Of a stretch of 64,000 nt of DNA, positions 126 to 63,916 are shown piece by piece (positions within the stretch are counted from its first letter, which is position 1; each line of letters starts with the position of its first letter). A program made the translations under genes and the position numbers. Origin of the DNA: a virus (Duplodnaviria; Caudoviricetes); IMG/VR virus record IMGVR_UViG_3300031998_000028, positions 50,916 through 114,915 of that record; one strand, written 5' to 3'. The notes under the pieces were generated by a model. That model was given only the letters and a program-made list of their open reading frames with translations, was not told the origin of the DNA and did no database searches.

Positions 126-581
126 ATGGCCTATAATCCTAATACTCTATAGCAATAGCTTCAAGATTTATCTCGACAATATCAATCACTAGTAGGCCAA
201 CAAATAGTGCCTACATCCCCAGTTCAAATACCAGTCCTTCCACATCAAATTCAATATGTAGAAGGTCTTAATGGAGCAACGCTTTATCAAACAAATATGC
301 CATCAAATAGCTCAGAAATAATTCTTGACAAAGATGAAGACATATTTTATAAAGTGTCAAAAGATGCAAACGGAATACCAGCAAAGAAAATCATTAGATG
401 TCGTTTCACAATTGAAGAAATACAATCGGACGAACCCGATTTCTTAACTCGCAAAGATTTTGAAGAATTTAAAGAAGAATTACGGCAAATGCTTAACGCG
501 CAATCCTCCGCTCCACTAAAAGTGGAAACAAAATCCCTCAAAAAATCTTCGGGAGATGTGATGCATGAATAGTCTGTTTAA
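126..581 (+). CDS. Gln/Pro-rich hypothetical protein, first gene of a 4-gene cassette (TAG=Gln)
   Basis: ATG at 126 after a GGAG RBS, in frame with ORF 207..572; in-frame TAGs, ends TAA at 579-581. Confidence 0.7.
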
Positions 582-864
582 TGGTTCCAACGCTTTGGCA
601 AAATTATCGAATCTTGCTCAATCTGCTCCTACAATAAATACCGCCCCATAGTCACCTAATCTGTTGTGGATGGCTATTGGGGCGGCTTTGCGTCATGAAT
701 CTCCTCAATCTTTTATGGAAAATTTAGCACAGACACACCCATTACTAAAACAATATGATTTATCTAATTTACCCCAGGCCGCCGCGCAAATATGCCAGCA
801 AAGAGGGGTAGATATGCAATCTGTTATTCAACAAATTGATAGTGTAACGTCATCTTTTATGTAA
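565..864 (+). CDS. hypothetical protein (TAG=Gln)
   Basis: ATG at 565 in frame with ORF 664..864 through one TAG. Confidence 0.65.
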
Positions 865-917
865 TCACCACGGTCGCGACGTGTTGAAATTTAATATTTT
901 TTAAAAGGAGATTGATT

Positions 918-1445
918 ATGAACGGTTCTTCTACTAGCTCGTTTTTCGGCTCTGATTGGCTCGGCGCGTTTTTAATCATTGCTGTCTTATTTGGAGGATT
1001 TGGCGGCTTTGGTTTTGGTAATCGCGGCGATGGTTTTGCTACTCCTGAATATGTTCAGAGTGCAGTGAACAATCAGTCAACTCAGACAGGACTGCGTGAC
1101 ATCCTTTTATCGTCCGCAAATAACAACTATGAAACCGCGCAGCTCATTAACAGTCAGACTCGTGACTTAATGACTATGAATTACACTAATCAAATCAATG
1201 TAGTTCAAGGTTTCAATGCAATTCAACAGTCTCTTGCTCAGCTTGGGTATCAGATGGATCAGTGCTGCTGCAGTATCAAGACTCAAATGCTCCAGGATAA
1301 GTATGAGAATCTTGAGAATATGTATCGTACTGCCCAGAATGATTTGTCCAATGCTGCGCAGAGCCAGTACATTCTTAATGCGCTCGGCCGCTTTGTGGCA
1401 TATCCTGCCTCAGCTGCCGCTGCCGCTGTAACTACTGGTGGTTAA
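918..1445 (+). CDS. membrane-anchored Gly/Phe-rich, Gln/Asn-rich protein with CCC motif (spore-coat-like phage family)
   Basis: WLGAFLIIAVLFGGFGGFGFG N-terminus and QMDQCCCSIK motif; AAGGAG RBS. Confidence 0.65.
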   Translation: MNGSSTSSFFGSDWLGAFLIIAVLFGGFGGFGFGNRGDGFATPEYVQSAVNNQSTQTGLRDILLSSANNNYETAQLINSQTRDLMTMNYTNQINVVQGFNAIQQSLAQLGYQMDQCCCSIKTQMLQDKYENLENMYRTAQNDLSNAAQSQYILNALGRFVAYPASAAAAAVTTGG

Positions 1446-1499
1446 TACATAATATAAGGGTGGGTATTTATACCCACTCTTTTTTTGAGGGGAGATAAA

Positions 1500-1811
1500 A
1501 TGCGAATAATTAAGTGCTTAACGGAGTATATCAATGAAGAGCTCCATGACGCGCAAAAATATGCAGAGAAGGCCCTAAAAGTAAAAGCTGACTATCCAGA
1601 AGTTGCAGAAGTTTTTGAAAGTTTATCCAATGAAGAATTAAAACATATGTACTCTTTACATGGATAGGTTACAAGACTTATTGAAAATTATAGAAAACTT
1701 TAGGGCGAACCGCCTGCTAATATGCTTGCTGTGTATGATTATTTACATGAGGAAGCAATTAAAAAAGAAAAAGAAATTCGATTACTTCAACAAATGTATA
1801 TAGAAAAATAA
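1500..1811 (+). CDS. ferritin-like four-helix protein (TAG=Gln)
   Basis: EELHDA...EELKH metal-ligand pattern; reads through two TAG to TAA at 1809-1811. Confidence 0.6.
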
Positions 1812-1917
1812 AAAGAAGCCCTCCGGGGCTTCTATTTTTAAAATTTGATTTTTTGATAAAATTATAGTATAATATATATATAGTAGAGGAAAATATATAT
1901 ATTATAGGTGAGAGAAT

Positions 1918-2889: not shown

Positions 2890-4002
2890 ATGAAAGGATA
2901 CGCTGGGGGAATAGATTGGATTAACGCAGAAAGTATGCGTTATTGGAGTTTTCCATCTTCTTATAAAGGAGACAAAAAAGCCGAAACTCGTAATATGATT
3001 TTTTCTGGCGATTACTGGGGCGCGCTTAAAGTGGATGGTTATTATGAGCGTCTTATTAAAGATGAAGATGGTAATTGTTTTATGGTCGCGCGCAGCAAGA
3101 ACGTAAAAGGAGAAGCAGTTAATAAATATGAGTGGGTGCCGCAGATTCATGATTTTATGAAAAGTTTACCAAATGGTACCGTTCTACTTTCTGAATGTTA
3201 TTTGCCTGACAATGAAGGCTCACAAAAAATAACTGGACTTCTTGGATGTTTGAAAGACCGTTGCATCGCACGGCAGGCCGCAGGACAAAAACTTCATTTC
3301 TACATTTTTGATGTAATGTCATATGCAAACATAGATTGTTCAAAAGACAGTTTTGAACGACGTATTAAAGATTTAATCCATATTAAAAAATTATTTCCAT
3401 CTGAATATATATCCTTTGCTACTTATTATGAAGGTGAAGAACTTTGGAATGAACTCCAAAAAGCACTTGCAGATGGTCGCGAAGGTATGGTCATCATGCG
3501 CAAAGATGCCCCAGTTTATTTCAAACGGACGCCAGCGCGCGTGAGTCTCAAAATAAAGAAAGAACTTCGCGAAACAATTGATTGCTTCTTTACAGGGCGT
3601 GCAACTGCACCTACCAAAGACTATACAGGTAAAGAAATTGAAATCTGGCCTTATTGGATACATCAGGAAACTAATGAGCGACTTCCAATTGGTAATCATT
3701 ACTATGAAGCTTTTATGGAAGGCAAGCCATATATTCCAGTAACAAAACCATACTATAATCATTGGGCTGGGTCATTAGAAATCGGTCTCATTGATGACGT
3801 TGGCGCAATAATAGGTATCGGTTATTTAAGTGGTTTAACAGATGAAATCAAATCCAACTATAAAGACTATCAATACCGAGTAATTGAAGTCGGCGCAATG
3901 CAACTCACACCAGACGGCGCGCTTCGTCACGGAAAAATGTTGGGATGGCGCGATGACAAAATGTGGAGAGAATGTAATCTTTCACAACTTAAAACACTTT
4001 AA
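2890..4002 (+). CDS. ATP-dependent DNA ligase
   Basis: KVDG adenylation motif, FYIFD, EGMV, LKIK, C-terminal OB fold with LRH. Confidence 0.85.
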   Translation: MKGYAGGIDWINAESMRYWSFPSSYKGDKKAETRNMIFSGDYWGALKVDGYYERLIKDEDGNCFMVARSKNVKGEAVNKYEWVPQIHDFMKSLPNGTVLLSECYLPDNEGSQKITGLLGCLKDRCIARQAAGQKLHFYIFDVMSYANIDCSKDSFERRIKDLIHIKKLFPSEYISFATYYEGEELWNELQKALADGREGMVIMRKDAPVYFKRTPARVSLKIKKELRETIDCFFTGRATAPTKDYTGKEIEIWPYWIHQETNERLPIGNHYYEAFMEGKPYIPVTKPYYNHWAGSLEIGLIDDVGAIIGIGYLSGLTDEIKSNYKDYQYRVIEVGAMQLTPDGALRHGKMLGWRDDKMWRECNLSQLKTL

Positions 4003-4060: not shown

Positions 4061-4471
4061 ATGAGTAAAGGTGAAGATTTGATTGAGCATCTACTACGAA
4101 AGAAGAAAGTAACTTATACCAAAGAAAAGAGTTTTCCTGGATTCCGTGGCGGAAAAATGCGTTTTGATTTTTATTTACCAAATACTTCTACTTTAATTGA
4201 AGTGGATGGTGAGTAGCATTTTAGGTATAACTCTTATTTTTATGCCTCAAAAAAGGAATTTAATCATGCAAAGCAAAATGATTATTATAAAAATTCTTTT
4301 GCTCTCGCGCATGGATATAAATTATATCGTATTCCTTTTTGGGATTTACCAACTATTTAGCATTTTTCAGATATTTTTCAAGACAAATATTTAGTTAAAA
4401 GTAAATGGCATAATGACCAAATTTATCGCTAGTATTTATTGGAGGCACGCTCAAGTGGGAGATTTAAGTAA
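4061..4471 (+). CDS. Vsr/DUF559-like PD-(D/E)XK endonuclease (TAG=Gln)
   Basis: MSKGE..RFDFYLP..LIEVDGE[TAG]HF..RIPFW; missing from the code-11 track. Confidence 0.8.
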
Positions 4472-4949
4472 TGCTGCTAATCTGATTATTTTAGTAGGAG
4501 CAGTTATTGTAGCTATTAAGACTATATATGGATTCTTCAAAAAGCCGGTAGAGATTGTGTAGGAAAATGCACGATAGAATGAAGAAGAACATATAAAAGA
4601 AGTTCTAAAAGAAGAAATGCCAGACCTTCTTTCTAAGAACTGTGAACCTATATTGGCCTCGTTAGATGAAATCAAAGAGATGACATTAAATCAAGAAGAA
4701 AGGCTTGAACAGATGTAGAAATCTTTAGATTTATTAAATGTATCATAGCTTGATATGCTTCGTTATAATATGAATCGTTTATACTATAAGTATCGTCCCT
4801 ATAAAAAGATTCTAGACGCAGACAAACAAGCGTTTTTAAAGCTATATCATGACTATAAAGATATGCATGGTAACACCTGGATTGATTCTTTATATAATGA
4901 AGTTATAGAATGGCCTATTGTGGCTTCATAGGATGAATTGAAAAATTGA
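4455..4949 (+). CDS. membrane-anchored holin-like/hypothetical protein (TAG=Gln)
   Basis: GTG start after GGAGG, N-terminal TM helix, open only with TAG=Gln. Confidence 0.55.
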
Positions 4950-4999
4950 CATATGAATAAAAATATGATATAATATATACATAAGGGAGGAATTTTCTT

Positions 5000-5965
5000 A
5001 TGTATATATTTTTTTCTATTTTGATATTTATTATAGGTATAATATTTTTTATTATTGGTATCAAAAAGTAGAGTCAAGACCTAATAAAACTTGAAAAAAC
5101 TAAAAGTGAATATTTAGAAAATCGTATTAAAGATACCATAAAACGTTGTAATGATTTAGAGCAATTACATAAATAGTTAGAACTATAGCGCGATGCCACA
5201 TTACGAGAATAGCTAATTGAGAAGTAGCATTTAGAAGATCTCCGTAAGCATAGTCATGAGTTACTCTTATCTGAACGAGAACGTATTGATACAGAGATAA
5301 AAATGACACGCCACCAAAAAATGGAAGAACTCCGAAAGGAATATGATAATTAGCGAGTCCTTTTAGAGCATAATTTTCTTTAGCGTCGTGATGATATTAA
5401 TAAATAGCTTGAGACTTGTTAGAATGAATTAAAGGCATTTTAGGATATTTAGGCTTCTATTAATGAAGCCGCGCGCCGTAAGCGTGAGATAGAAGAACAA
5501 GAATCATTCTATTCTATTGATGTTTCTGAAAATGATAGAGAGGATATCTCTGTACTTTAGTCTATGGATACTCGACTACATAATAGAGATGTAATACCTA
5601 AGCTCATATGGGAATTATTTATACGGCGCCCGACCCAAGAGATGATTAAACGCGTGGTTGGTAATGAAAAGGCGAGCGGTATTTATAAAATTACCTATAA
5701 GAATACAGGAGAAGCGTACATTGGTAAGACGACAGATTTTGCAACTCGATGGCAGAATCATATCAAGACCGCTATTGGACTTGAAGGAGCTGCGAGAGCT
5801 ACACTTCATAATCGTATGGCAAAAGATGGTATCTGGAATTACACTTTTGAAATATTAGAACGAGTAGATAAAGAGTCTCTCGCATCACGAGAGTCTTATT
5901 ATATTAATCTATATGGAACAAAATCACAACTCAATATGAAAGAAGGGAATAAAAATGGAACTTAG
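5000..5965 (+). CDS. TM + coiled-coil protein with C-terminal GIY-YIG nuclease domain (TAG=Gln)
   Basis: GIYKIT..YIGK motif; upstream frame is open to ATG 5000 through many TAG. Confidence 0.7.
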
Positions 5966-7001
5966 TAAACTTCAACAACAAATAGTAAATGCAACAGAAG
6001 ATAAAATCGTTGTATTAGCGGCGGCCGCAGCAGGCAAAACTGCAGTCCTGACTGAGCGGGCGCGCAAGCTTCTACGTGATGGCGTAAATCCATCTGATAT
6101 AGCTGTAATTACTTTTACAAATCTAGCAGCACAAGAACTTCGTGACCGTTTGGCGGATGATTATAAAGATGGAATATACATAGGAACAATTCATGGCTTA
6201 GCTAATAAATTTCTTGTAACGCATGGTATTAGTACAGGTAAACTCATTGAAGATGAAAAATTTGATGAATTTTTTAGCCTTTTGCAACAGAATCCAACTT
6301 GTGTGAGACATATACCAATTATTTTATTAGACGAGGCACAGGATTCATCTTGGGAAGAATTTAATTTTATCTTTAATATGATACAACCAGACCAATTCTT
6401 TGTATGTGGTGATATACGACAAAGTATTTATGGTTTTCGTGGCGCGCAACCTCAGCTTTTAATGGAATTGGCGGAGGATTCTGGCGCAACGCTTTACGAT
6501 TTAAATGAAAATTATCGTAATGGCGCTAATATTTTATCATATGCAAAACGTATACTCGCGCGCGATGGCATGAAAGATTCTTCAATAGCAATGCGCCAAG
6601 GCGGTACTGTATACGAAGGCCCATGCGATGTAGAAAATATTGTTAAATGGATAGAGAAACATGGCACTTTTAAAGATTGGGCAATTCTTTGTTCAACTAA
6701 TGATGAAATTAAATGGCTTATGGGAAAATTAGAAGAATATAGTATTCCAACCGTTACTTTTAAGCAAGGTAAAATGACAAAAAAACAGCTGGAAACCGCG
6801 ATGAAAGACAATGTTGTAAAGGTCTTAACACGGCATTCAGCCAAAGGGTTAGAATTTCCGTATGTAATTGTTTATAATCCTAGTTGGTGGGGTAACGAAG
6901 CAAGACGTGTTAATTATGTCGCTGCGACGCGCGCACGCGATGTATTGATGTGGCTTGAAACACCAAAAAAAGGGAAGAAAAAGTTTTTTGGCACAGACTA
7001 A
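5955..7001 (+). CDS. UvrD/Rep-like SF1 helicase
   Basis: AAAAAGKT Walker A variant, TFTN, DEAQD, GDIRQSIYGFRGA, NYR, HSAKGLEF, YVAATRAR. Confidence 0.9.
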   Translation: MELSKLQQQIVNATEDKIVVLAAAAAGKTAVLTERARKLLRDGVNPSDIAVITFTNLAAQELRDRLADDYKDGIYIGTIHGLANKFLVTHGISTGKLIEDEKFDEFFSLLQQNPTCVRHIPIILLDEAQDSSWEEFNFIFNMIQPDQFFVCGDIRQSIYGFRGAQPQLLMELAEDSGATLYDLNENYRNGANILSYAKRILARDGMKDSSIAMRQGGTVYEGPCDVENIVKWIEKHGTFKDWAILCSTNDEIKWLMGKLEEYSIPTVTFKQGKMTKKQLETAMKDNVVKVLTRHSAKGLEFPYVIVYNPSWWGNEARRVNYVAATRARDVLMWLETPKKGKKKFFGTD

Positions 7002-7018: not shown

Positions 7019-8527
7019 TTATTTATTAGGCAGTTTAAGTACATCACCAGGATGGATAGTAGATGTAACTTTTAAACCGTTAAGTTTTGCAATTTCCGCA
7101 AATCTTAAACCATTTCCAAGTTCTTTTGCTGCAATTTTCCAAAAACTATCGTCAGGCTGAACTATATAGGTTCTTTCTGTGGTAGGAGTGGTTGTCGTTG
7201 GCGTTTCCGGTTCGGCCGGCGCGCTAGCTGTGCCTTCGATATAGAGGTCTGACGCCTTAAATGGACTCATAATTGTCATTGTGCCATTTGCATTTTTATT
7301 TAATACTACTCTATCACCACTTACACTTAATACAATCCAAATATCATTAATAACAAAATCTGGGACTTTCGTGGAAGTATTATAATATGTGGCGCCTTCT
7401 TTAACTCGAACTTTATCTCCTTTTTGGAGTGAAGTTGGGGTTATTTGGACTGGAGGTTGCGTGGGAGTAGTTGTAGTTGGTTGAGTAGAAGTTCCAACTA
7501 CTACACTCCACTTTGGACGACCAAATCCAGCAATTATTTTATTACCTTTTTTATAGGTAATACGCATTACCTAATCGCTAGCATTACCTTCGATAGTTGT
7601 AAGAGAAGTCCAGTTTTTGCCTGAACCAGTGACACTTTCAACAATACCTGTGTGGTTTATATCGCCACCATAGTAAAAGAAAATCTAATCTCCTACTTCG
7701 GGGTAATTATAGAAAGCACCATTGTTTCTGTAATATGCTGCGCTTGTTTTACATAATGCTGAGGCGCGGCCGACTGTTTGGTATGTCATGGAGGCACCCT
7801 ATTGCATTGTAAAAGCATGAGTAAAGCAATAATCTACAAAAACATCACACCAAGGTTGATGTTGAAGTTCCCAACCATAAAATTGGTTATCCCAACTATC
7901 TTCAGCGTATTTGATATAATTATTATAACCCTCTTTATATCCAAGTTCTGCGCGTGCTACTTTTAATAATCTTTCTTTTGCTTGGTCAACAGAAGAAATA
8001 GTTGTGCTTTCTGTATTAGTGGGCGCGTCTTTGAAATTCTTATAATGCTTTAAAGCATAATTATAACGAGTAGAAAGATTTTTAACTGCTGGATTTTCCC
8101 ATTGGTTCAATAAAAGTGAGGTCAAGTCATATAGATTATTACTTGTCTTCAACTTTTTCCAAATAGATGGGAAATCTTCTTTTAGTTCTTTAATTAAAAA
8201 AGAAGTTTGTAACTTAACATCACCTATAGATTGGTTCTTAGATTTTGAGAAATTTAGTAACTTTTGTTTTCTTGTATAGTAAGTCCATTGTGCAAGTCCA
8301 TAACCTGCGTTGTCTCTTACAAAATTAGTATATGTGCCATTATCTACAGCTTTTGTATATTCTGCATCAGACATTTTTAAAGAAGTATTATAAGAGTCTT
8401 GAAGGTTGTTTGCAACAAATCCGCTTTCAGCTTCTATATTGCCAAGCAAAGCGCAGGCACCTTCAATAGTAGTCCCGTTTTTAATAAAACGGTTATATAA
8501 ATATTTAATTGTCTCCTAAGGTGTCAT
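7019..8527 (-). CDS. endolysin: phage lysozyme-like + CHAP + LysM (TAG=Gln)
   Basis: ORFs 7799..8449 and 7019..7567 share a frame and are joined by TAG; GNIEAES/GYGLAQWT, PWCDVFV, GD[TAG]IFF, HTGIV, EGNASD[TAG]V, C-terminal LysM. Confidence 0.9.
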
Positions 8528-18763: not shown

Positions 18764-18764
18764 T

Positions 18765-52709: not shown

Positions 52710-54487
52710 TGGCCGCGATTCAATTAATCAATCCTGATGTAGTTCAATTTAATACGCATGATAGACTTTATCATGATGGTATTGAATTAGAAAAAGGTGT
52801 GGTTATTACTCCTTCTTTTTTAGAAAAGAATGAAGACTTAATAGCTGAATCAATTCAAATCTTTACTGCTTATCCCGATATATTTTTAGATTTAATTACT
52901 CCGCTTGGCTCTAATTTTAAACTGTTTCCTTATTAGCGTTTATTCTTGCGCGCGTGCATGAGGTATACAAAAATATATATTACCGCGGCTCGTGCAACAT
53001 CTAAAACCTTTCTTTCTATACTTGCAAAATACTTATAGTGTATTTTTTTACCGAATCACGTGGGTTCGATTGTAGCGCCGAATAAATAGCAGGCCGCGAA
53101 AATCAGTAAGCAAAAAATAGAAGAAATTTGGCGTATTTGGCCTTTATTAGAAAAAGAAATAGAAAAGGCAAATTTTGGTAAAGATTATGTGGACATATTT
53201 TTTAAGAATGGCAGTAGATTATCTATTGTGGGTGCTTTAGATAGTGATCGTGGTATTCGTACTCACGCGACCTTAATAGATGAGGCACGTGACCAAGACG
53301 GCGATGCAATAAACGAAATCGTTCTGCCGCAGATGAACGTTTCTCGACGTATGGACAATGGATTAGTAAATCCATATGAAAAAACAAACACTCAAGTTAT
53401 ATACGCCACATCTGCCGGTACTAAATCGTCTTATGCATATGAAGCACTTATAGATACTTTTGAATAGGCAATAATTGACCCAAAAACTGCTTTCTGTATT
53501 GGTCTTGATTATCGAATTCCTGCATAGCATGGTCTTATTGACCCAGTATATGTTCGTAATTTAAAAATGTCACCATCATATAATGAAACTACATTCGCGG
53601 CCGAGTATCTGGGACAATGGCTCGGCGGCGGTGAAGATTCTTGGTTTGATTTTAATAAACTTACGAAATATCGTAAAATAAAAAATCCTGAATGGCGTCC
53701 AAAATTTAGAGATGACCCAAATGTTTTTTACTTAATTTCAGTGGACGTAGGTAGATTACATGACCAAACAGTTGCTTTTATTTGGCGTGTAAATATTCGT
53801 GAGAATAAATACTATAGTACAGTTGTTAATTTATTTGTTCTTGGCAGATAGGCAGAAACAAAAACTTTTGTGTAGCAAACAATTGACTTAAAACATTTAA
53901 TTGAAATCTATACTCCTCGCGAAGTTGTAATTGATACGAATGGTTTGGGCGTCGGCCTAGCCGATGAAATGATTCGTACTCAATTAGATGAAATGGGGCA
54001 CGAACTTCCTGCTTATGGCTTTTTTAATAATGATGATTATAAAAAAGTATAGCCGAAAGATGCGCCGCAAATTCTGTACTCATTAAAAGCCAATGGGCCC
54101 TTAAATTCAAAGATACATAGTAATGCCTATTCACGTATAAATGGTGGTATGGTTCGCTTTTTAATAAGCGAACAAGATGCGCGAGCAGCGCTCTTGGCGA
54201 CAAAAATCGGCCAAAAAATGTCGACAGAAGACCGCATAAAACGTCTAATGCCGCATGAACTTACCACAAAGTTATTTGAAGAAATGGCTAATTTGCGGCT
54301 TCGCAAGTCGGGCCTTGATATAGTTCTTGAACAAATTAATGCGCGCTTTCCAAAAGATAAATATTCAGCTTTTGCTTATGGATTGTGGCGTATTAAAGAA
54401 TTGGAAGAAGAACACTATAAAAAAATAACCCGATTCCAAAATCGCGGAGAACGTAAGTTAATTTTCTTTACTGGAGGACGTAACTAA
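52709..54487 (+). CDS. terL: terminase large subunit (TAG=Gln)
   Basis: LFPY[TAG]R, ARATSKT Walker A, LIDEAR Walker B, ATSAG, SVDVGR nuclease, KDKYSA. Confidence 0.9.
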
Positions 54488-55983
54488 TGACAGAACAAAC
54501 CACCGAAATTAATAGTGCCCCAGTTGGTATTCAAGATTTGGAAACTTTTAAGCGCGCTATTAATGGAATGATTGTTAAAAGTGATAGGTCTTGGACTGAC
54601 ATTAGCGATAGATTTTTACGTAGATAGCGATTAAAAAATTACGACGAAAAAGAAGTCGAAGACATCATTAATTCTGGTTCATTATTAGCGCAATAGCGCC
54701 TATCAATGAATTACTTTTTAAAAGATAGTTTATATAAGCGAATAATTATTTATTATGCTACTCTTTTGAAATATGTAGGTATTTTAATCCCTAATCCAAG
54801 TGCGGGCATTGAACTCTCCACCCCCTACGTTACAAAAAGGTATAATAATGCACTCGATTATATAGATAAAATGTTTATACCAGATATGTTGACTAGATTT
54901 TCTTTGCGCGCGTTAATTTATGGTTGCTATTATGGAGTTTTACGAGATGTAAGTAAAACTAATTTTGCACTTTTAGATTTACCAGTTGAATATTGTCGCT
55001 CAGATTTTAAAGATTTTTATGGTAATGATATTATTGAATTTAATGTTCAATATTTTGACTCAATTTATGATGAATCTTCTCGTAAATAGGCTTTAAAGGT
55101 TTATCCTAAAATTGTGTCTGACCATTATAATCGTTATAAAAAAGGCTAGGTTAAGACTTATTGGGTAAAGATTCCGACTGACATTGGTTTTTGTTTTTCT
55201 TTCTTTGATGACAATCGACCTTTGTTCTTAGATTTAATTCCCGCGGCTATAGCTTACGATGATGCGGTTGATATTAACCGTGAACGTGATTTGGAAGAAA
55301 TCCGTAAGATTATAGTTTAGAAAATTCCCCATTTGTCAGATGGTATGCTTTTATTTGAGCCTCAAGAAGCTGAGGTTATGCACAGTGGCGCCGTCGAAAT
55401 GATGAAGGGAAATAAAAATATAAGTGTTTTAACCACTTATGCAGATGTAGATGCAATAGTTTCCAAGGCTTCTTCAGAAGCAACTACAAACTCTTTAGAG
55501 AAAAGCTTACAAAACTTTTATTCCAAAGCCAATGCAAGTATGCAAATCTTTTCACCTACAGGAAGCCAAGCACTTAGCACTTCAATTCTTAACGATATGT
55601 CAATGATGATGATTTTGGCACATAAATATGGTAAATTTTTAAGTTACATCATTAACAATCTATTTGCCAACTCTAATATAACTTTCAAGTATGAGATATT
55701 ACCAATTACTTGGTATAACGAGAAAGAATATATTACAGATACTTTGAAAATGGCTACGAATGGTTACAGTTATATCTTACCTGCCATCGCGGCCGGCTTA
55801 TCACAAAAAGATTTAGTCAACGTAAAGAAATTAGAAAATACTTTATTGAAATTACAAGAATTATTAATTCCATTGAATAGTTCATTCACATAGGGTAGTG
55901 GGGACGTTGGCCGTCCAAAGCTTTCGGTGGATGAAAAATCACCTAAGACTCTTTAGAATGAAGAATCATTGGATAAGTAGTAA
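54487..55983 (+). CDS. portal protein (TAG=Gln)
   Basis: 498 aa directly after terL, C-terminal GRP motif. Confidence 0.75.
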
Positions 55984-57344
55984 TGGAGGCTCAAATGGAC
56001 AATTCACTATATGAGTTTCCTGTTACCGTTTATGGAAGCTTAGAAAAATATAATGAAGTTCTGAGCAAGGCGCGCTGTCGTATTTTTTATAAGTATGAAA
56101 ACCGTAATGGTACTTATATAACCGACGAATTTGCAGATATGCTTCTGCAAAGTTTACCTTATGCACCAATTAAAGGTATTTATCAACCGGAAGAAGGTGA
56201 CTATACTGACCACGGCAATGAAAGAAATGAAGGCCGTATTTATGGTATAGTTCCCGAAAATCCTAATATCGCTTGGGAAGATAATTTAGATGATGACGGT
56301 GTAACACGTTCTTATGCGTGCGCGGATGTATTGATTTTTACTGCCCTTTATGAGGAAGCAAACGAAATAGTTGGTAAAGGTCAATCAATGGAATTATATC
56401 GTCCATCTTTATAGTATCACGAAGCCATTGTTAAAGGCCGTCGTATGATTGTTTTTGACAAAGGATGCTTTTTAGGATTATAGGTACTTGGTGACAATAC
56501 TGAGCCTTGTTTTGAAGGAGCTTCATTCTATACATTACAAAATACAATTGAAACTGCAATTAATGCAATAAAAAATTACGGAGGTACTAAAATGCCAGTA
56601 ATTAATTTTAAACTCTCTGATGATGAAAAGTTCCAAGCTATTTGGGCTTTGCTTAATCCTGAGTTTAATGAAGAAGGCAACTGGACTATTACTTATGGTA
56701 TTTCTGCCGTATATGAAGACTATGCACTTGTAGTAAACTATGAGACCGGTGAGTTTAATCGTGCTTATTATAAGAAGAACGATGAAACTGATATGGTTGA
56801 GTTAGGTGATATTGTTAAGTGCTATGTTCTTGATGTAACTGAGAATGAAAAGCAGACTTTAGATACTCTGCGCGCCCTCAATGGTGGAACCTACGAGTTA
56901 GTCAGTGACGTTTTAGTTAACGCTCAAGATACTCTTGATAAAAATTCAGAATTTTCCGCCAAAATTGATGAGTTAACTAGTACTATTGCTACTTTAACCA
57001 CAGAGAAGGATGAATTTTCTGCTCAATTAGAAACTGCTAATGCTAATATTGAAGCACTTACTGCTGAGAATACAAGTCTTCAACAGTATAAATTAGATAT
57101 TGACACCGCTCAAAAGAATGCTGTTATTGATGAATATGCAGAACAGCTTAGCGATGAAATTCTTGACGCTTATCGCGCAAAGCTTGACCAATATAGTGTG
57201 GAAGAGCTTGATATGCATTTAGCTTATGAGTTAAAGAAGAGCAATCCTACTGTCTTTAGTAAGGCTCCTGATAGTGGCTATGTTCCTAAGGACACCCACG
57301 TAGATGGACTTACATCAATTTTATCTAAGTATAAGAACAACTAA
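55983..57344 (+). CDS. prohead protease-scaffold fusion; internal scaffold start at 56592 (TAG=Gln)
   Basis: NRNG, GQSME, LG...EPCFEGA; two TAG join it to the coiled-coil ORF; GGAGG before 56592. Confidence 0.75.
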
Positions 57345-57363
57345 TTTTAGGAGGCTATATTAA

Positions 57364-57915
57364 ATGGCTAGAATGGTTATTGATGGTTTCGGCCAAATCG
57401 AACTTAATAACGTTGCTTTCCGCCGTGACGGCCGCATTGAAGCTCAGTGCGCTCTTAGTACTGTTGATTTTGCTTCTGTTCCTGCCGAAAATGGTATGAT
57501 TCTTGTTGTTAAGAAGGCTGACCATGAGATTTGCTTCGCCGATGCTTCCGCTGAAAATCAGCTTTATGCTCTTAACTATACTTCTGAGCATATGTATGAT
57601 GAGCGCAAGCCCGGCTTAAAGAATTTTGCTACCTATGCCCATGTTAATGGCAAGGATGATTTCTATCCTCGTGTTGGCTACCTCGCAGCTGGTGACCTTT
57701 GGACTACCAACTGTGTTGATCTTGGTGCATATGCTAGCGCTGATGCAGTTGCATCCGCTCTTGCTAGTGGCGCTGTATACGCTGCTGTTGGCACCCAGGG
57801 CGCACCTGTTATCCAGGCTGCTGCTCCTAGTGTTGGACCTGTAATGCAGGTAATTAAGAAAACTACAATGCCCGATGGACAGGATGCTTTCCAGCTCCAG
57901 GTTCTTAAGGTTTGA
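57364..57915 (+). CDS. head decoration/stabilising protein
   Basis: between scaffold and capsid genes, ENGM motif, highly biased codons. Confidence 0.65.
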   Translation: MARMVIDGFGQIELNNVAFRRDGRIEAQCALSTVDFASVPAENGMILVVKKADHEICFADASAENQLYALNYTSEHMYDERKPGLKNFATYAHVNGKDDFYPRVGYLAAGDLWTTNCVDLGAYASADAVASALASGAVYAAVGTQGAPVIQAAAPSVGPVMQVIKKTTMPDGQDAFQLQVLKV

Positions 57916-57933
57916 TAAGGAGGGTATAATATA

Positions 57934-58983
57934 ATGACACTTAGTGAGTTTAGAGATATTGCCCTTCATGCTGCTAAGGGCACCGCTCCTGCCGAATTTA
58001 CTGTTGATAATGTAAATGCTGCATTTATTGATGGTTTAAAGGAGCTTGCTGGTACCTATAATAAGTTTATGAAGAATCGTTATGATATTTATGATATCAT
58101 TATTGAGTCTATTGACCAGATTCTTCCTAAGAATGTTGAAGATGCTCTCGGCGCTTTCGCTGAGGTAAAGCGTGTTGGCCAGGGCGAGAAGGCTATGTTC
58201 GTTCAGAAGACCGGCCGCGCTCGTGCAAAGAAGTTCCTCACCCAGGTTGGTCTTAGTGGTGTTTACGAGACCTTCCGTCTTGATAGCAAGACTTTTGAGG
58301 TCGGTGCTCATGCTGTTGGTGGCGGTGCCACTATCGACTTCGAGCGTATGCTTGATGGTGCTGAGTCTCTTGCCGAGGTAGTTGGTATTGTAACTGAAGG
58401 CCTTGAGAACGCTGTTTATGTTGAAGTACAGAAGGCACTTAACGCTGCTCTTAGCGTAATGCCTGCAACCAATAAGTACTCTGGCTCTTGGAGTGCTGAT
58501 GAAATGGTTAAGTTACTTAACGTTGTACGCGCTTACGGTTCTCCTGTTATTTATGCTTGCCCCGAGTTCGTTTCTGCTATGGGTCCTGATGCTATTGTTC
58601 CTGTTCTTATGAACAGCACCACCAATGTTGCTCAGGGTATCTATAGTCCTAAGGATATTGAGGCCATTCATGATTACGGCTTCATTAATGTCTTCCGCGG
58701 CGCCCCTGTTGTTCAACTTCCTCAGTCTTTCGTTGATGAAAACAACAGAGAAACCTATGTAAATCCTCGCCTTGCTTATGTCTTCCCTGCTGGCCAGGAG
58801 AAGGTTGTAAAGGTTGTTCTTGAAGGTTCTACTCAGATTCGCGACCACGAGAACAAGGATAATTCTATGGAAGTTTTTGCTTGGAAGAAAATGGGCTGCG
58901 CTATTCTTACCCACCACAACTGGGCTATGTATGAGAATAGTAGCTTAACTGATACTTCCGCAAAAGATATCTACGGATTCTAA
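57934..58983 (+). CDS. major capsid protein
   Basis: 349 aa, position, high-expression codon bias, strong terminator hairpin after it. Confidence 0.8.
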   Translation: MTLSEFRDIALHAAKGTAPAEFTVDNVNAAFIDGLKELAGTYNKFMKNRYDIYDIIIESIDQILPKNVEDALGAFAEVKRVGQGEKAMFVQKTGRARAKKFLTQVGLSGVYETFRLDSKTFEVGAHAVGGGATIDFERMLDGAESLAEVVGIVTEGLENAVYVEVQKALNAALSVMPATNKYSGSWSADEMVKLLNVVRAYGSPVIYACPEFVSAMGPDAIVPVLMNSTTNVAQGIYSPKDIEAIHDYGFINVFRGAPVVQLPQSFVDENNRETYVNPRLAYVFPAGQEKVVKVVLEGSTQIRDHENKDNSMEVFAWKKMGCAILTHHNWAMYENSSLTDTSAKDIYGF

Positions 58984-58993
58984 TTAAACCAAT

Positions 58994-59027
58994 GATGGGG
59001 AAGGGGATATTCCCCTCCCCAATTTTT
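58994..59027 (+). terminator. intrinsic terminator after the capsid gene
   Basis: TGGGGAAGGGGAT-ATTCCCCTCCCCA followed by a T-tract. Confidence 0.7.
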
Positions 59028-59065
59028 ATTAAGCGCATTTGCGTAGGAGTTAAAGGAGAAAAATT

Positions 59066-59545
59066 ATGTCTGAAGAAAAAATTAAAGTTATAAGTGCCTA
59101 TAATGGCCGTTGCGGCATTGACAATGCCGATTTGCGTATTTCTCGTCGTTGGCCCGGTAGAGGGGCTGTTGTCACCTTTACGAAACAACAAATCGAAGAA
59201 TTAATGTTTGACCCTGCATTTAGTAATATGGTACGAGAGGGTTATCTTTATATCGAAGATATGGATGTAAAGAAGGAAATCGGAATAGAACCCGAAGATG
59301 CTACTACTCCAACTATTATACTATTAACTGATAAAGAGCTTACTCGTTTTTGGAAAATTATGCCGTTTTCTCAATTTAAAGTTGAAACTGGTAAATTGAC
59401 TCGTCAACAGATTGTACTTCTTGCTGAATATGCCATGAAACATGGTAGCGAAGGTACTATTGATAAAGCTAATTATTTAACTCAAATTAGTGGTTATCAA
59501 ATTTTAAAGGGGATTGAATTAGAAAATCAAAGTTAGGAGGGCTAA
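59066..59545 (+). CDS. virion morphogenesis hypothetical protein
   Basis: reads through TAG to TAA at 59543. Confidence 0.6.
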
Positions 59546-59547
59546 TA

Positions 59548-59979
59548 ATGACTGAATTTTCAGTAATATATGATGCTTTCTTGGCAAAAATGCTTGATGA
59601 TGAATGGAGCGATTGGTACGAGGCAGATGTCCAAGAGGACTTAAAAGCATTATTAATGGGTGCGTTGCCTTGGTTTAAATTTCCGCGTGTTTCTCTTGAA
59701 TATACTAGTAATGACACTTTTGTTGAAGATTTAAATAACGAAGAAGTTTAGTTATTATCTACTTATATGAAATGCGAATGGCTTAATCGTACTATTCTTA
59801 CTTGGGAGAATGTAAAGCCTTTATATGAGGAGCGTGATTTCTCTTAGGCAAATCTTTTAAGTAAGTTTAACGATACTCTCGCGGCCGAGAAGAAAAATGC
59901 GGCCAGACTTGAAGCGATATATTATCGCTCTATTAATAGAAAGCCATTCGACTATACAAAGTTAGCGCGGTAGAGTTAA
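59548..59979 (+). CDS. head-tail adaptor candidate (TAG=Gln)
   Basis: YDAFL..., DFS[TAG]ANLL. Confidence 0.6.
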
Positions 59980-60230
59980 TGGAATACTTAGAAGGTTATA
60001 ATAATAATTTAAAGAATCGTTTATTTGGATTATTATGTGAATATGAGAAAGGTCGAGAATGGGAAAAGTTTTTAGATTCCATTTTGATTGAATTAATATC
60101 ATATCCAGATGAACATAAGACAATAAATTATTATAGACTTTATACTAAAATTTCTTCACTTCGTTATTTAAGTTATGATTATTTTCGTACAACCGTTTTT
60201 GATTGTATGAGTTTATTATCGAGAATATAA
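59979..60230 (+). CDS. hypothetical protein
   Basis: overlapping start/stop. Confidence 0.6.
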   Translation: MEYLEGYNNNLKNRLFGLLCEYEKGREWEKFLDSILIELISYPDEHKTINYYRLYTKISSLRYLSYDYFRTTVFDCMSLLSRI

Positions 60231-60967
60231 TGGGTAGTTATTTTAATATTTACCAATAGCGTTTAAATCGTTTTGGTAATGATTACTAGTCACGTATTCA
60301 AGGAGAAAGAGAGCATTTATTTGAATTATATTTATTAAAAACCATTTATCGAGTAGATTTTGAATATAATAACTATCATTATGCTGGTAGTTTGGAAAAA
60401 TATAAACAAGATGATACTAAAACATTATAGTATTTATTAACTGACGTACATTTAGATATTCCTAGTGGAACGGTTTTATAGATAGTAGATAAAAATAATT
60501 AGTATCAACCTTGGATGATATATTATTTAGAGAATATAAAAGCAAGTGGTTATAATCGCTATATTGTTTTAAAAATGACTCATTTTCTTACGTGGGCTGC
60601 GCGCGACGGTAGTACATAGACTTCTTGGGCTTATATGTATGGTCAAGAAGATAATATGCTTAAAGATGAAATTCGTTCTCGTTCCCGTATGGATACTCTT
60701 TATGCAGAGAATTTAAAATCTAGTTTCTTTGTGATGCCTAAAAATCAATACGTAAAAAAGGATAGTTATTTTGTTATTGGTGAGCAACCATTTTAGGAGT
60801 ATTATCGTGTAACAGGATATGATATTCAATCTACTGATGGTGTTGAATATGTAACTGTTGACCCCGTTTATGAATTTGATTTAAGTGCCGCGCCCGCGCA
60901 GAGTTCTAGTGATAATGGTACAGATTTCTTTTGGATTAATGGGGGGATAACAAGTGCCAACCCGTAA
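60230..60967 (+). CDS. head closure/neck protein candidate (TAG=Gln)
   Basis: open only with TAG=Gln; position. Confidence 0.55.
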
Positions 60968-61445
60968 TTTAGGCGATTTAGGTATTCATTTATAGAAAAT
61001 TGTTAGTCGTTTATAGACAAATTAGCAATTACTTAAACTTTTGTTTTATACTGACAAAGACCCTTGCGCCAATACTGATTTGACAGATGAACAAATATAG
61101 ACTCTAATATTTGAAAAATTAATCAAAGTTGTACCTCGTGTTGGCCCTAAAGAAACTGCGCAGAGTTTGATTGCTTTACGTATAGTGCGAGGCCGCATGA
61201 ATAGTGAAAATAATGAATTTCGAGACTTTGAGATAGATATTGAAGTTTTTGTTCCTATGACATAGTGGATTATAAAAGATTCTAATTTGCGACCTTTTGC
61301 TATTATGGGCGAAATTCATAAAAGCTTAAATGGTAAGGTTATTGATGGATTAGGTAAAATAATTGGTGGAGATTTTTAGATCAATTTTTTAACGGACGAA
61401 ATCGGCTGTTACGAAATGGTATATTATATTACTAGTTATGATTAA
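60954..61445 (+). CDS. tail terminator/neck protein candidate (TAG=Gln)
   Basis: GTG start, LLKLLFY, LRPFAI motif. Confidence 0.55.
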
Positions 61446-62184
61446 TCCCAATTTTTTCCTCGGTTATCCAGTCGCATTTAAAGAAATTTGCTGGGTATAT
61501 CCGCCAAAATTAAAAGACATAATAGCAGATTAGAATTATCCAATGTATCGCAAATTATTATTAATTACTTAGGAAGAAATAGAAGATTTATTTGCTGAAG
61601 CTAAGATTTCTTTTGAAGAATTACCAACTCCTTTCTAGTATTTATTTTTAATGTCTGCGACAAATGAAGAATTAAGAGAGTTAATAATAAAGGGTTTTTA
61701 GTTTTTTTTACATGAACCAGTTTTATTATTACCAGATATAGGTCGTATTATTGTAGGAGATTTAAAAGAGACTTTAGAATCGGTTCAATCAATTGATGCT
61801 TTACGTATTCTTACTGAAGAAAATTATTTTGAATTACAAAATTTAATGCGTAGTTCTATTGGTGAAAAAGAAGCAGAGCCTTATAATCCTAATGAAAATC
61901 CAAAAATAAAGTATTTTAAGGCTAAGGCGCGCCTTCGTGATAAAGTTAAAGCAAAGTCTGATACTGTCTTAAATTTAGGTTCTACAATGGCCGCATTTTG
62001 TTGTATGAATTTTGGTATTAATCCACTTAATATCGGAGAGTTAAGTTAGTCAGCATTAACAGTTTTAATGCGTTATTATCAAGAAAAAGCAAAGTATGAT
62101 AATGATGTTGCATTTTTACTGGCTGGCGCAGATAGTAAAAAAATACAACCGCAAAATTGGATTAGAAATATAGAAGATTTGTAA
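61438..62184 (+). CDS. tail-module hypothetical protein (TAG=Gln)
   Basis: open only with TAG=Gln; LLAGAD C-terminus. Confidence 0.55.
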
Positions 62185-62203
62185 AATAGGAGGTCATTTC
62201 TAA

Positions 62204-63064
62204 ATGGCTAGTATTTTAGACCGTTATGGTATTAAAGAAGTTGCTGACGTAACTTTTTATAAGATTAATGACGATGGCACTCCTGGTGCTCCTGTACTTT
62301 TTCTTGATACTTTAAAGGTTTCTACCATTGAGCAAACCGCAGAGCAAGTTGACGCTCGTGGTGGCAAGGGCAATCCTAAGCTTATTACTTGGGACTATGG
62401 TAAGGAAATTACTGTAACTATTGAAGATGCTCTTTTCAGTCCTAAATCAATGTCTATTATGCTTGGTGATGGCACTGTTGCTAAAGCTACTTCTCAAGAT
62501 GTTCCCCATACTGCCGTAATTCGTGTTGGTGAAGATGGTAAGATTCCTGAGTACTTTACTGCTGATATTTATGATGCAGAAGTTGGTTCCGCGCGTAAGA
62601 AAATTTATATTGGTGGTAGTTCAACTCCTGCTAATATGGTTCCTTTCTCAAGCGCCGGCATTACTTTAAAGACTGCCGTATCTGAAACTGGTGATGTAAT
62701 TAGTAGTGCATTAACTTCCGCTATTATGTCTAGTGCTGTTAGTGGCTCTGCTACTTTCGGTAGCCATGCAGGTGAAAAAGTATTTATTACTTATACTGTA
62801 AAGGCTACTACAAAAACCATCACCCTTTCTGGTGATAGCTTCCCTGGCACTTATTATGTAACTGGTGATACCTATTCTCGTTCTGACGTTGATGGACGTG
62901 ACCAGTTCTTCCAGTTCATTATTCCTAAGGCTAAGTTATAGGCACAGAATACCATTACTCTTCAGGCTGAAGGCGATCCTTCAACATTTAATATGAACCT
63001 CACCGTTCTTCGTCCAGAATCTGGCGAAATGATGAAGCTTGTTCAGTATGATTTGGAGAGCTAA
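62204..63064 (+). CDS. major tail (tube) protein (TAG=Gln)
   Basis: LDTLKVSTIE, ARGGKGN; single TAG at 62939 then AEGDPSTF. Confidence 0.75.
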
Positions 63065-63130
63065 TAACAATTAATATAACGTTTGGAGGAGGGAGGAAAA
63101 CTCCCTCCTTTTATTTTGGAGTGAAAGGAA

Positions 63131-63916
63131 ATGGATGAAAATTTCGGTTCTTTTAAAAGTTTAGAGAATGTGCATTTAAAAGCTACTTATAATATGAAAG
63201 TTAATGGAAAAACGTTTGAACCTGGTGAAACAATCGCACTTTTTGATAAGATTTAGATTAGTGGTTTGCACGAATTTAAAGATTATATCACTGCAAATGG
63301 CGGCTTTGATAATCGGGCGCACGTTTTTTGGTAGAATACACGTTAGTTACAATTAACTTTTAGTTAGGGTGTTTTTTCTTCTTTTCAATTTGGCTTATTG
63401 AATAATGCGAGAGTTATACAAGTCGCAGAAGAAGAGCCAGTATTATTAACACAAGTGGATAAACTTGAAAGTGATAAAAATGGAGTAATTGATGTAAGTA
63501 AAGAGCCAATTGAATCTATTTTTGTATATGATAAAGATACTGGAGAAAAACTTAATTTTTCTAAAGTTGGAGATAAATTGGTAATTGCGACACCGTATAA
63601 AGATGTAATTGTATTTTATAAATATAATTATATGGGCGGCGCGCAAATAGCTAAAATTGGTCAACAGTTTTTAACTGGTTTTTTAGAATTAGAAGGAAAA
63701 ACGAGAGTAAAGGACGATACGTCTGGACTAGTTACTACGGGAATTATACGTATCCCGAAACTAAAATTAATGTCTGGCTTATCTATAAAATTAGGCACGT
63801 AGGCAAATCCTGTAGTTGGTAATTTTTCTGCAGTAGGCGTGCCAGTAGAATCACGACATAGCAGTTATGTTATGGAATTTGATTTCTTAAATAATGATGT
63901 AGATAGTGATATGTAA
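63131..63916 (+). CDS. tail-tube-like paralog (TAG=Gln)
   Basis: ANGGFDN..., IPKLK...G...NP motifs parallel the preceding gene. Confidence 0.55.

Follow-up and report, generated by a model that had tools for sequence, protein, structure and literature searches.

A Siphovirus-Type Phage of Genetic Code 15: In-Frame TAG with a Glutamine-Type Pattern and a Phage-Borne CUA tRNA

Introduction

Phages of the gut and rumen in which TAG is reassigned to glutamine (genetic code 15) were surveyed by Borges et al. in a 2021 preprint, and TAG suppressors were detected in only about 40% of the TAG-recoded genomes (10.1101/2021.08.26.457843). The reading of TAG as Gln in crAss-like phages was validated by metaproteomics (Peters et al. 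2022, PMC9523058). Among siphophages, CUA tRNAs have been described in the group of phAss-1 (OQ749652), the proposed genus Phassvirus, whose members share 80-86% nucleotide identity (Babkin et al. 2023, PMC10607447), and suppressor tRNAs associated with Theta (HDV-like) ribozymes were reported by Kienbeck et al. 2024 (PMC10879173). The determinants used by GlnRS and the glutaminylation of amber suppressors have also been described ('Glutamine identity' section, PMC9976931), and a weaker 1-72 pair makes other amber suppressors insert Gln (PMC9976931).

The stretch of DNA analysed here (the window) comprises bases 50916-114915, the right-hand 64 kb of a 114,915-bp IMG/VR record with a completeness of 96% by CheckV. 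Its source is an uncultured tailed phage of siphovirus type with genetic code 15, and the host probably belongs to the class Clostridia. The first-pass annotation had remarked that code-15 gut phages are known, which holds also for a related siphophage group, that of phAss-1. The phage is thus a clear, well-documented case of an already published phenomenon and not a new one, and it leaves existing beliefs on code-15 phages unchanged. Standard annotation pipelines mis-annotate such phages. What this one offers is a clean natural experiment, with dozens of close relatives in which TAG is either Gln or does not occur at all, with explicit early promoters and with the suppressor beside ordinary tRNA-Gln and tRNA-Trp genes in one array. 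It is therefore a good test system for host code switching, for the tRNA features that recruit host GlnRS and for recoding as a timer of late expression.

Results and Discussion

Relationship to Described Phages

The closest relatives are IMG/VR contigs, with TerL identities of up to 92%. They split cleanly into genomes with 5-18 TAG per 1000 codons and genomes with none, in-frame TAA and TGA being essentially absent. As in the surveyed code-15 phages, recoded and standard-code lineages are interleaved on the TerL tree (three recoded clades are seen), and TAG is the least used stop of the standard-code relatives, with 8.5%. Other shared traits are the presence of TAG in structural and lysis genes, early genes compatible with the standard code, a phage CUA tRNA and a presumed dependence on the host synthetase. 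The window phage differs from them in having no RF2/synthetase "code-change module", in a late capsid gene that is free of TAG and a late major tail gene that is nearly so, and in early genes arranged as an array of single-gene consensus-promoter cassettes, rich in GC3 and preferring CAG. Regarding the module, a search for PCRF, RF-1 and class-Ic synthetase domains (release factor, GlnRS/GluRS) across the whole 115-kb record found none, so that the earlier statement that the window lacks such genes can be extended to the rest of the genome.

With the phAss-1 group it has in common a large siphovirus-type genome (115-136 kb), about 30 tRNAs including tRNA-Sup(CTA), TAG read as Gln in the genes of TerL, portal and tail, the absence of a synthetase and a suspected Clostridia-type host. 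The window phage has one CUA tRNA and the phAss-1 group has two or three. TerL and capsid are homologous to those of phAss-1 with identities of only 36.6% and 36.0%, respectively, which rules out membership in the proposed Phassvirus and leaves a distant relation.

TAG as a Sense Codon

Greedy ORF coverage of the window rose from 63.4% under table 11 to 82.5% with TAG as sense, and in the 48.2-64 kb region, which holds the late module, the two values were 55% and 97.5%, as expected from the reassignment proposed by the first-pass annotation. Considering that raw greedy ORFs with TAA as sense also cover 79.5% of the window, density alone is weak evidence and it is the homology test that decides. 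The greedy code-15 set of the window has 69 ORFs with 100 aa or more, and 42 of these are broken under the standard code; beyond it there are a 2431-aa ORF with 74 TAG and a 1338-aa ORF with 37. TAA and TGA are still stops: the genes of the window end in TAA (70) or TGA (22), in agreement with what had been traced at first, and the homology-supported alignments of 36 recoded relatives contain 1,068 TAG and, in each case, at most one TAA or TGA.

The residues found at 68 in-frame TAG sites were compared with those of 44 standard-code relatives. Gln made up 39.9% of the aligned residues; its share was 38.7% where the window has a canonical Gln codon and 3.8% in the background. Glu (15.5%) and Lys (9.1%) came next, and Trp was close to 0. 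Gln was the majority residue at 30 of the 68 sites, and several of these are invariant Gln. The codons that 80 IMG/VR relatives have at the window TAG sites were CAA (29.8%), CAG (8.3%) and TAG (8.3%), and then those of Glu and Lys. The substitution profile that fitted best, by far, was that of Gln. These alignments show that many genes use TAG as sense, with a substitution pattern of the glutamine type.

The five motifs quoted by the first-pass annotation are all present, with TAG in the place given, and its reading of TAG as Gln agrees with the relatives' codons, with GT2 homologues in the PDB and with the restoration of ORFs. In the GT2 glycosyltransferase gene (1918-2889, + strand, 3 TAG) the first TAG, in LDSIVA-q-T at 1972-1995, aligns with a Gln of PDB 5tze (TarS-type) and 5hea (GalT1). 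An HNH/Vsr-like homing endonuclease (4061-4471, +, 3 TAG) reads VDGEqH, with DGE-q-H at 4205-4219, and a GIY-YIG homing endonuclease (22134-22865, +, 5 TAG), located just downstream of the CUA tRNA, reads YIG-q-S at 22182-22196; a second GIY-YIG gene at 5000-5968 reads YIGKT and is not the source of this motif. The endolysin (phage lysozyme, CHAP and LysM; 7019-8527, - strand, 4 TAG) has GD-q-IFF at 7676-7693. Finally, the large terminase TerL (52709-54487, +, 592 aa, 8 TAG), which aligns over 88-94% of its length to standard-code terminases, has PYqR at 52928-52939, and this TAG, residue 76, corresponds to Gln in 40 of 40 standard-code relatives.

The opposite reading would take the in-frame TAGs as real stops, in pseudogenes, through assembly error or with low-level readthrough, the long ORFs being an artefact. 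The genome is AT-rich and ignoring any single stop lengthens ORFs, as the coverage with TAA as sense makes visible. We give this reading practically no credit, since the homology-supported genes are interrupted by TAG only, the same TAG pattern without in-frame TAA or TGA is repeated in 36 related contigs from many samples, TAG occupies invariant Gln positions, and real stops would leave a 96% complete genome with its TerL, portal and tail genes all destroyed.

Distribution of TAG and Codon Usage

TAG clusters in genes for packaging, tail, lysis and homing endonucleases and in one regulator-like gene. The packaging and virion module (48487-63916, +), called late by the function of its genes, has ORFs that are whole only with TAG as sense, with 80 in-frame TAG in the 17 listed ORFs that have 80 aa or more. 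Besides TerL, it includes the portal gene (54487-55983, +, PHROG 2739) with 8 TAG and a gene for a 436-aa HTH and zinc-ribbon protein (50153-51463, +) with 15 and with a consensus promoter in front of it (50101-50129). The latter protein matches PHROG 5767 "sigma factor" (E 3e-17) and had no Pfam or NCBIfam match; its putative assignment as a sigma factor is weak.

The first-pass annotation spoke of code-neutral early genes. This stands for the cassettes, about 15 one-gene units at 38676-48164, placed on both strands (three promoters on + and about 13 on -). Each has a TTGACA-17-TGnTATAAT promoter of the sigma-A type, a shared leader/RBS and a hairpin terminator. No TAG occurs in them, CAG makes up 33 of the 37 Gln codons, and GC3 is 0.44-0.85; compared with the remainder of the genome, a Fisher test gave p=6e-6. 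"Early" is a good reading of these units, resting on promoter consensus and gene function, and few of their products have an assignable likeness (MarR-like, an exonuclease, two phosphatase/nucleotidase-like). Host-takeover modules of the Bacillus phage SPO1 type also consist of short genes, each with a strong host-type promoter, RBS and terminator; the likeness noted here is one of arrangement.

Large replication genes have no TAG or very few. As had been claimed, no in-frame TAG is found in the ATP-dependent DNA ligase-like gene (2890-4002, +), in the UvrD-type helicase gene (5955-7001, +, 15 Gln-type codons), in the gene of the DUF2828 and DUF7788 protein (27719-29245, +, CAG in 10 of 11 Gln codons) or in that of the major capsid protein (57934-58983, +, CAG in 9 of 10). 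The capsid assignment comes from an AlphaFold model (pLDDT 75.5) for which Foldseek matched capsids of HK97 and encapsulins with probability 1.00. Just upstream, a gene for a 183-aa head-module protein (57364-57915, +, CAG in 8 of 9 Gln codons) is equally without TAG, also in 26 of 27 recoded relatives. The major tail (tube) gene (62204-63064, +), named after homologues annotated as tail tube or major tail protein, has one TAG. Over the 27 recoded relatives the TAG share is 2% in the capsid gene, and genes of the capsid region are TAG-free in 25-26 of the 27; in the major tail gene the share is 4% in recoded relatives. Taking into account that capsid and major tail genes sit in the late module, an equation of TAG-free with early does not stand for them, and TAG-freedom is not simply a matter of early timing: it also tracks very high expression or a GC3-rich, CAG-preferring codon usage. 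Endonucleases, GT2 and a permease (13432-14661) bear TAG and are not obviously late.

The CUA tRNA

An array of 33 tRNAs, all with encoded CCA, was located by tRNA searches at 17293-31499 (+), with homing endonuclease genes interspersed. It includes tRNA-Gln(CUG) at 25572-25645, tRNA-Gln(UUG) at 26076-26149 and tRNA-Trp(CCA) at 29640-29713. The tRNA with CUA anticodon (amber suppressor) reported at 21966-22040 (+) was recovered by ARAGORN (21965-22040) and by the Rfam tRNA model (21966-22036, 37.9 bits). A putative promoter of the sigma-A type, TTGTAA-17-TGTTATAAT, was detected by pattern scan at 21631-21659 (+), upstream of the tRNA-Asn/tRNA-CUA pair by about 225 nt. The proposed cloverleaf has a U1·U72 mismatch, C2-G71, C3-G70, G10, C34 U35 A36 A37, one A bulged out of the T stem, G73 and CCA; an alternative fold has -19.5 kcal/mol, the MFE being -19.7. 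The first pair is unpaired in 5-6 of 9 CUA tRNAs and in 15 of 446 other tRNAs.

The first-pass annotation called this tRNA Gln-like, a label that is defensible from its sequence features in part. U35, G73, G10 and a weak 1-72 pair, which are determinants for GlnRS in E. coli, are all present; the overall identity is no closer to Gln, the best full-length values being 76% for tRNA-Trp, 75% for tRNA-Gln(CUG) and 75% for a crAss CUA tRNA, and the tRNA may descend from tRNA-Gln or from tRNA-Trp. It shares the CUA anticodon, U35, G73 and G10 with E. coli supE (tRNA-Gln CUA) and su7 (tRNA-Trp CUA), which are charged by GlnRS, as this tRNA would be. It lacks the E. coli Gln identity elements G2-C71, G3-C70 and U38, having C2-G71, C3-G70 and C38, and its first pair is U·U instead of U-A. 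With the CUA tRNA of the crAss-like cr53_1 (NC_055889, annotated as tRNA-Gln), a phage of an unrelated lineage and probably of a different host phylum, it shares the D arm, the CUCUAAC anticodon loop, U1·U72 and the encoded CCA, and differs in the anticodon stem, the T arm and residue 73 (G here, A in cr53_1).

Like the Theta-ribozyme phages, this one is a recoded phage whose tRNA array includes a suppressor. In that system the cleavage site lies at the 3' terminus of the tRNA, which usually has no CCA; here CCA is encoded and no Rfam match to an HDV-like ribozyme was found around the array at E<=1, which speaks against processing of this kind. Relative G003 does have such a match.

It might be that TAG is Gln and that the window CUA tRNA is not its main decoder but a decaying or accessory copy, with a host factor or a non-canonical phage RNA in charge. 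In favour of this, its tRNA score is the lowest of the 33 in the array and its T stem is irregular; the complete recoded relative G003, of the same clade, has only 10 tRNAs with no CUA tRNA detected, so that the recoded lifestyle does not require a suppressor carried by the phage; the share of recoded genomes with a suppressor was low in the survey of Borges et al.; and relative G001 has, in the same place after tRNA-Asn, a CUA tRNA with a very different body, which points to fast turnover. We regard this reading as improbable, considering that the anticodon arm, U1·U72, G73 and CCA are retained between the two tRNAs, that the 5' half is 89.5% identical over 37 nt to that of cr53_1, that the putative promoter lies upstream, and that the 115-kb genome yielded no second candidate for the decoder. 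Less probable still is that the tRNA is a C35U derivative of tRNA-Trp and that TAG is at least partly Trp or a mixture of residues. The nearest tRNA in the genome is indeed tRNA-Trp(CCA), with 76% against 64.5% for both tRNA-Gln, and the CUA tRNA of G001 likewise has an anticodon arm that resembles the tRNA-Trp of its own genome. However, Trp occurs once among 3486 aligned residues at the window TAG sites (80 IMG/VR relatives), where Gln is as common as it is at true Gln codons; when bacterial genomes were scanned with the D-arm/anticodon-stem pattern, the anticodon being left free, the first 120 matches included 98 tRNA-Gln and 1 tRNA-Trp; and E. coli charges even a true tRNA-Trp amber suppressor with Gln (PMC9976931).

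Proposed Mechanism

Our preferred reading, to which we assign a probability of roughly 85%, is that of a code-15 siphophage in which TAG is Gln, the phage CUA tRNA is glutaminylated by host GlnRS and the TAG-free genes can be translated first. The CUA tRNA would be transcribed by the host RNA polymerase from the promoter class common to the early genes, and host GlnRS would charge it with glutamine via U35, G73, G10 and the weak first pair, here the U1·U72 mismatch. The charged tRNA would then compete with host RF1 at UAG. Genes without TAG would be translated at once in the host standard code, and the TAG-bearing late and lysis genes only after the suppressor builds up, as in the model of Borges et al. 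For the most abundant virion proteins suppression is presumably limiting, which would be why their genes shun TAG in favour of GC3-rich, CAG-type codons. In a host without GlnRS, charging would need GluRS and the amidotransferase, the first pair normally read there being U1-A72.

A further joint reading, which we offer as tentative and as rather doubtful, takes U1·U72 as a shared design for recruiting GlnRS and the TAG-rich sigma-like regulator as a translational timer. The mismatch would be a compensating identity element by which host GlnRS charges a tRNA that lost G36; the regulator may be transcribed early from its host-type promoter, and late transcription would wait on the build-up of the suppressor tRNA. 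A limited literature search found no description of a transferable "code-switch" tRNA design with an unpaired U1·U72. This feature would be common to phage CUA tRNAs of unrelated lineages, namely, the siphophage clade of the window, a second recoded clade, crAss-like phages and contigs in Lachnospiraceae and "Tenericutes" MAGs.

The Amino Acid Read at TAG

The meaning of TAG was assessed with 80 related IMG/VR loci obtained in a terminase-seeded scan, with flanks of up to 10 kb, and the codons of the window were mapped onto those of the relatives by tblastn. At the TAG sites of the window the relatives showed CAA (29.8%), CAG (8.3%), and TAG (8.3%), and then GAA, AAA, AAG, and GAG; TAT represented 1.3%, and Trp was found in 1 of 3486 aligned residues. 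Considering that TAG and CAA differ by two substitutions, this distribution reflects a shared amino-acid meaning and not mutational neighbourhood. The relatives were cleanly split into 36 recoded loci, having 5–18 TAG per 1000 aligned codons and essentially no TAA or TGA, and 44 standard-code loci without in-frame TAG. When only these 44 were considered, Gln formed 39.9% of the residues aligned to 68 TAG sites, compared with a background of 3.8% and with 38.7% at the canonical CAA/CAG sites of the window. It was the majority residue at 30 of the 68 sites, several of them invariant; the counts were 40/40 at position 76 of the terminase TerL (PYqR), 42/43 at TerL 448, and 42/43 at position 278 of the portal. 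Independently of the IMG/VR relatives, PDB 5tze and 5hea have a conserved Gln at the position of the first TAG in the GT2 gene. The assignment of TAG to Gln, proposed in the first-pass annotation from the sequence of the window, is therefore borne out by the enrichment in standard-code homologues, and we consider it established at the level that sequence analysis allows.

The reading frames were also compared between codes. Greedy non-overlapping ORFs covered 63.4% of the window with table 11 and 82.5% with TAG as sense, and in the late region (48.2–64 kb) the coverage was 55% versus 97.5%. Coding density was thus higher with TAG as sense, but reading TAA as sense inflates the coverage in a similar way (79.5%), so that density alone is not decisive; it was set aside as deciding evidence and the homologue columns were used instead. 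In the same genome beyond the window, a 2431-aa ORF contained 74 TAG versus 70 CAA+CAG, and a 1338-aa ORF contained 37 TAG. The five motifs that had been quoted with TAG at a named residue were all present (5/5); YIG-q-S is real, but the gene that carries it is the one at 22134–22865 and not the GIY-YIG gene at 5000–5968. The latter (+ strand) has a long coiled-coil N-terminal part and 13 TAG in 20 Gln-type codons; it stops at a tandem TAG-TAA, and a consensus promoter is located upstream, at 4946–4974.

The CUA tRNA

The phage-encoded CUA tRNA placed at 21966–22040 was recovered both by ARAGORN (21965–22040) and by Rfam (21966–22036, 37.9 bits, the lowest score of the array). ARAGORN proposed an 8-bp acceptor stem with mismatches starting at 21965. 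A 7-bp cloverleaf with its start at 21966 was preferred, since this fold is about as stable (−19.5 versus −19.7 kcal/mol), begins where the Rfam match begins, and corresponds to that of the CUA tRNA of G001, the closest large relative (TerL 87%). In this conformation the molecule shows a U1·U72 mismatch, C2-G71, C3-G70, G10, the loop CU-CUA-AC, a T stem with one bulged A, G73, and an encoded CCA.

When five large relatives were searched for the suppressor by BLAST, no useful match was obtained, and the CUA tRNAs of the relatives were found by running ARAGORN on their whole genomes. The tRNA array of G001 has a matching gene order, and its CUA tRNA occupies the same slot, after tRNA-Asn; the body is very different, while U1·U72, C2-G71, C3-G70, G73, CCA, and the anticodon arm are retained. 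U1·U72 and G73 were also seen in G005, a member of a second recoded clade, whose suppressor of 88 nt (L101 19240–19327, that is, genome 119240–119327, minus strand) carries a hairpin insert of about 20 nt in the variable region. G005 and G004 have nearly identical TerL proteins, yet their suppressors are quite different, the one of G004 being of the textbook tRNA-Gln type (U1-A72, G2-C71, G3-C70, and G73). No CUA tRNA was detected in the complete, recoded genome G003. This genome gave a match to an HDV-like ribozyme (CPEB3 family, 40 bits; L083:991-1078), which falls inside its tRNA region, and one to a group I intron (90 bits; L086:2650-2963); no CUA tRNA was recognisable immediately upstream of the ribozyme. 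A theta or HDV ribozyme adjoining the CUA tRNA of the window was looked for and none was found.

In GenBank phages, the 5′ half of the suppressor was matched best by “tRNA-Gln” genes of crAss-like phages (89.5% over 37 nt). The one match that was fetched, from cr53_1, is a CUA tRNA with the U1·U72 mismatch, both features being common to cr53_1 and the window tRNA. CUA tRNAs of the same family were also present on three gut or rectum MAG contigs assigned to Erysipelotrichaceae, Lachnospiraceae, and “Tenericutes” (L178, L184, and L202), two of the three with U1·U72; these contigs may be phage or prophage and could hint at hosts. Taking all the tRNAs collected here, the first pair was unpaired in 5/9 CUA tRNAs, or 6/9 with the window tRNA re-registered at 21966, against 15/446 of the others (p about 1e-5 to 4e-7), bearing in mind that the CUA tRNAs are partly homologous and the events are not independent.

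It has been described that the GlnRS of E. coli reads U35, G36, the 10-25 pair, G73, and the acceptor stem, that other amber suppressors come to insert Gln when their 1-72 pair is weakened, and that the E. coli tRNA-Trp amber suppressor is also charged with Gln (PMC9976931). Considering these rules together with the features of the window tRNA, the latter looks built to be a substrate of GlnRS. The “Gln-like features” attributed to it are accordingly a fair description of the GlnRS determinants; the body may derive from either isotype, its full-length identities to tRNA-Trp and tRNA-Gln tying at 75–76%. Within the genome the nearest tRNA was tRNA-Trp (76%), and the two tRNA-Gln genes reached 64.5%. 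An IMG/VR scan in which 22/22 matches were tRNA-Trp was discarded as support for an origin from tRNA-Trp, because the pattern used (GGCTCYAACC) itself allows no anticodon other than CCA or CUA. With an anticodon-blind pattern in bacterial genomes, the first 120 matches listed, mostly from Planctomycetota, included 98 tRNA-Gln, 1 tRNA-Trp, and 3 CUA tRNAs.

Genes That Avoid TAG

The region at 38.7–48.2 kb is formed by about 15 cassettes of one gene each, most of them on the minus strand, and every cassette has a near-consensus TTGACA-17-TGnTATAAT promoter, a common AGAAAG(T/A)GAGGGA-type leader with RBS, and a terminator from one hairpin family. The ORFs, assigned by hand from the promoter and RBS positions, included a MarR-like protein, a DnaQ-like exonuclease, and two phosphatase/nucleotidase-like proteins. 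As had been claimed for the early cassettes, they contained no TAG (Fisher p=6e-6 versus the rest of the genome); CAG represented 33/37 of their Gln codons, and their GC3 was 0.44–0.85 versus 0.15–0.3 in most of the genome. The absence of TAG as their stop (0/15) is uninformative, because only 1.3 would be expected at the 8.5% usage of standard-code relatives. Two minus-strand leaders (~40540–40600 and 41350–41400) have in common the motif A(A/T)ATAGGGTG(A/G)CGACC, placed between promoter and RBS, which could serve as an operator or as an RNA element. Upstream of the window, the large replication genes were likewise TAG-free or nearly so (0/20, 0/27, 0/22, 0/28, and 0/19 Gln-type codons).

TAG was also scarce in part of the late module, with 0 in the HK97-fold major capsid gene, 0 in its upstream neighbour, and 1 in the major tail protein. 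Over the recoded relatives the TAG share of this trio was 0%, 2% (capsid gene), and 4% (major tail protein), compared with 30–54% in most other large late-module ORFs, and the three genes prefer CAG and have a higher GC3, as in early genes. The equivalence between TAG-free and early, code-neutral genes thus holds for the cassettes but not for the capsid gene, which lies in the late module. The simplest interpretation is that suppression-independent codons are used by genes whose translation must be immediate or very strong.

Promoter Placement and a Putative Regulator

The cassette promoter consensus recurs within the tRNA array, including a copy at 21631–21659, 225 nt upstream of tRNA-Asn/tRNA-CUA, and again at 50101–50129, directly before a regulator-like gene (50153–51463); no strong match was found in the rest of the late module. 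The 436-aa product has an HTH and a zinc ribbon, contains 15 TAG, and matches PHROG 5767 “sigma factor”, which weakly suggests such a function; sequence searches of Pfam, NCBIfam, and PDB gave nothing convincing. The promoter placement is compatible with a two-step timing scheme, in which the host polymerase would make the CUA tRNA and the regulator mRNA early, and the regulator, late, and lysis proteins would appear only once UAG is suppressed. This is the same scheme of suppression-gated late and lysis proteins as in the model of Borges et al.

Translation Factors and Evolution of the Code

The first-pass annotation reported no release factor or synthetase in the window, and this could be extended to the rest of the genome: no RF1/RF2 or GlnRS/GluRS candidate was found elsewhere, and PCRF, RF-1, and class-Ic synthetase domains gave no match in the whole 115-kb record, while control genomes did.

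A tree of 46 TerL sequences placed the window in a 19-member clade, all recoded (SH-aLRT 99), and two more recoded clades were nested among standard-code lineages, which implies at least 2-3 state changes. TAG was only 8.5% of the stops in standard-code relatives, and the suppressors differ both between and within clades. The tree, the rarity of TAG stops, and the variable suppressors match published patterns. Borges et al. (10.1101/2021.08.26.457843) predicted and surveyed phages with TAG as Gln, metaproteomics demonstrated the reassignment in crAss-like phages (PMC9523058), and the phAss-1 group comprises large siphophages with TAG as Gln and a tRNA-Sup(CTA) (PMC10607447). The reassignment in phages is thus already known, and the window genome is a new, rather distant member, being 36.6% (TerL) and 36.0% (capsid) identical to phAss-1. 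Features that may be new are the U1·U72 mismatch recurring in CUA tRNAs, a conserved avoidance of TAG by the virion proteins of highest abundance, and the TAG-rich putative regulator with an early promoter.

Genome Layout

The source record (114,915 bp), of which the window forms bases 50916–114915, was rated 96% complete by CheckV, and the overall GC content is 39%. Nucleotide-metabolism, lysis, and endonuclease genes occupy 0–17 kb, 33 tRNA genes lie at 17.3–31.5 kb, and the packaging and virion module runs from 48.5 to 63.9 kb. TerL shares 43.6% identity with the large terminase of Geobacillus virus E3 and is of the SPbeta/YonF type found in large Firmicutes siphophages. A weak match to YrlA (Y RNA-like; 19771–19880, +) scored 23 bits, below threshold. 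A partial tRNA-like Rfam match (27387–27446, +; 42 bits, model positions 5–66), without an ARAGORN call, precedes a DUF2828+DUF7788 gene (27719–29245, +) by about 270 nt. The phage carries two nucleobase permease genes, a uracil-permease-like one at 13432–14661 (+; NCBIfam NF007995, E 2e-62), with one TAG, and a Xan_ur_permease one at 29700–31145 (+; E 7e-36), without TAG and within the tRNA array.
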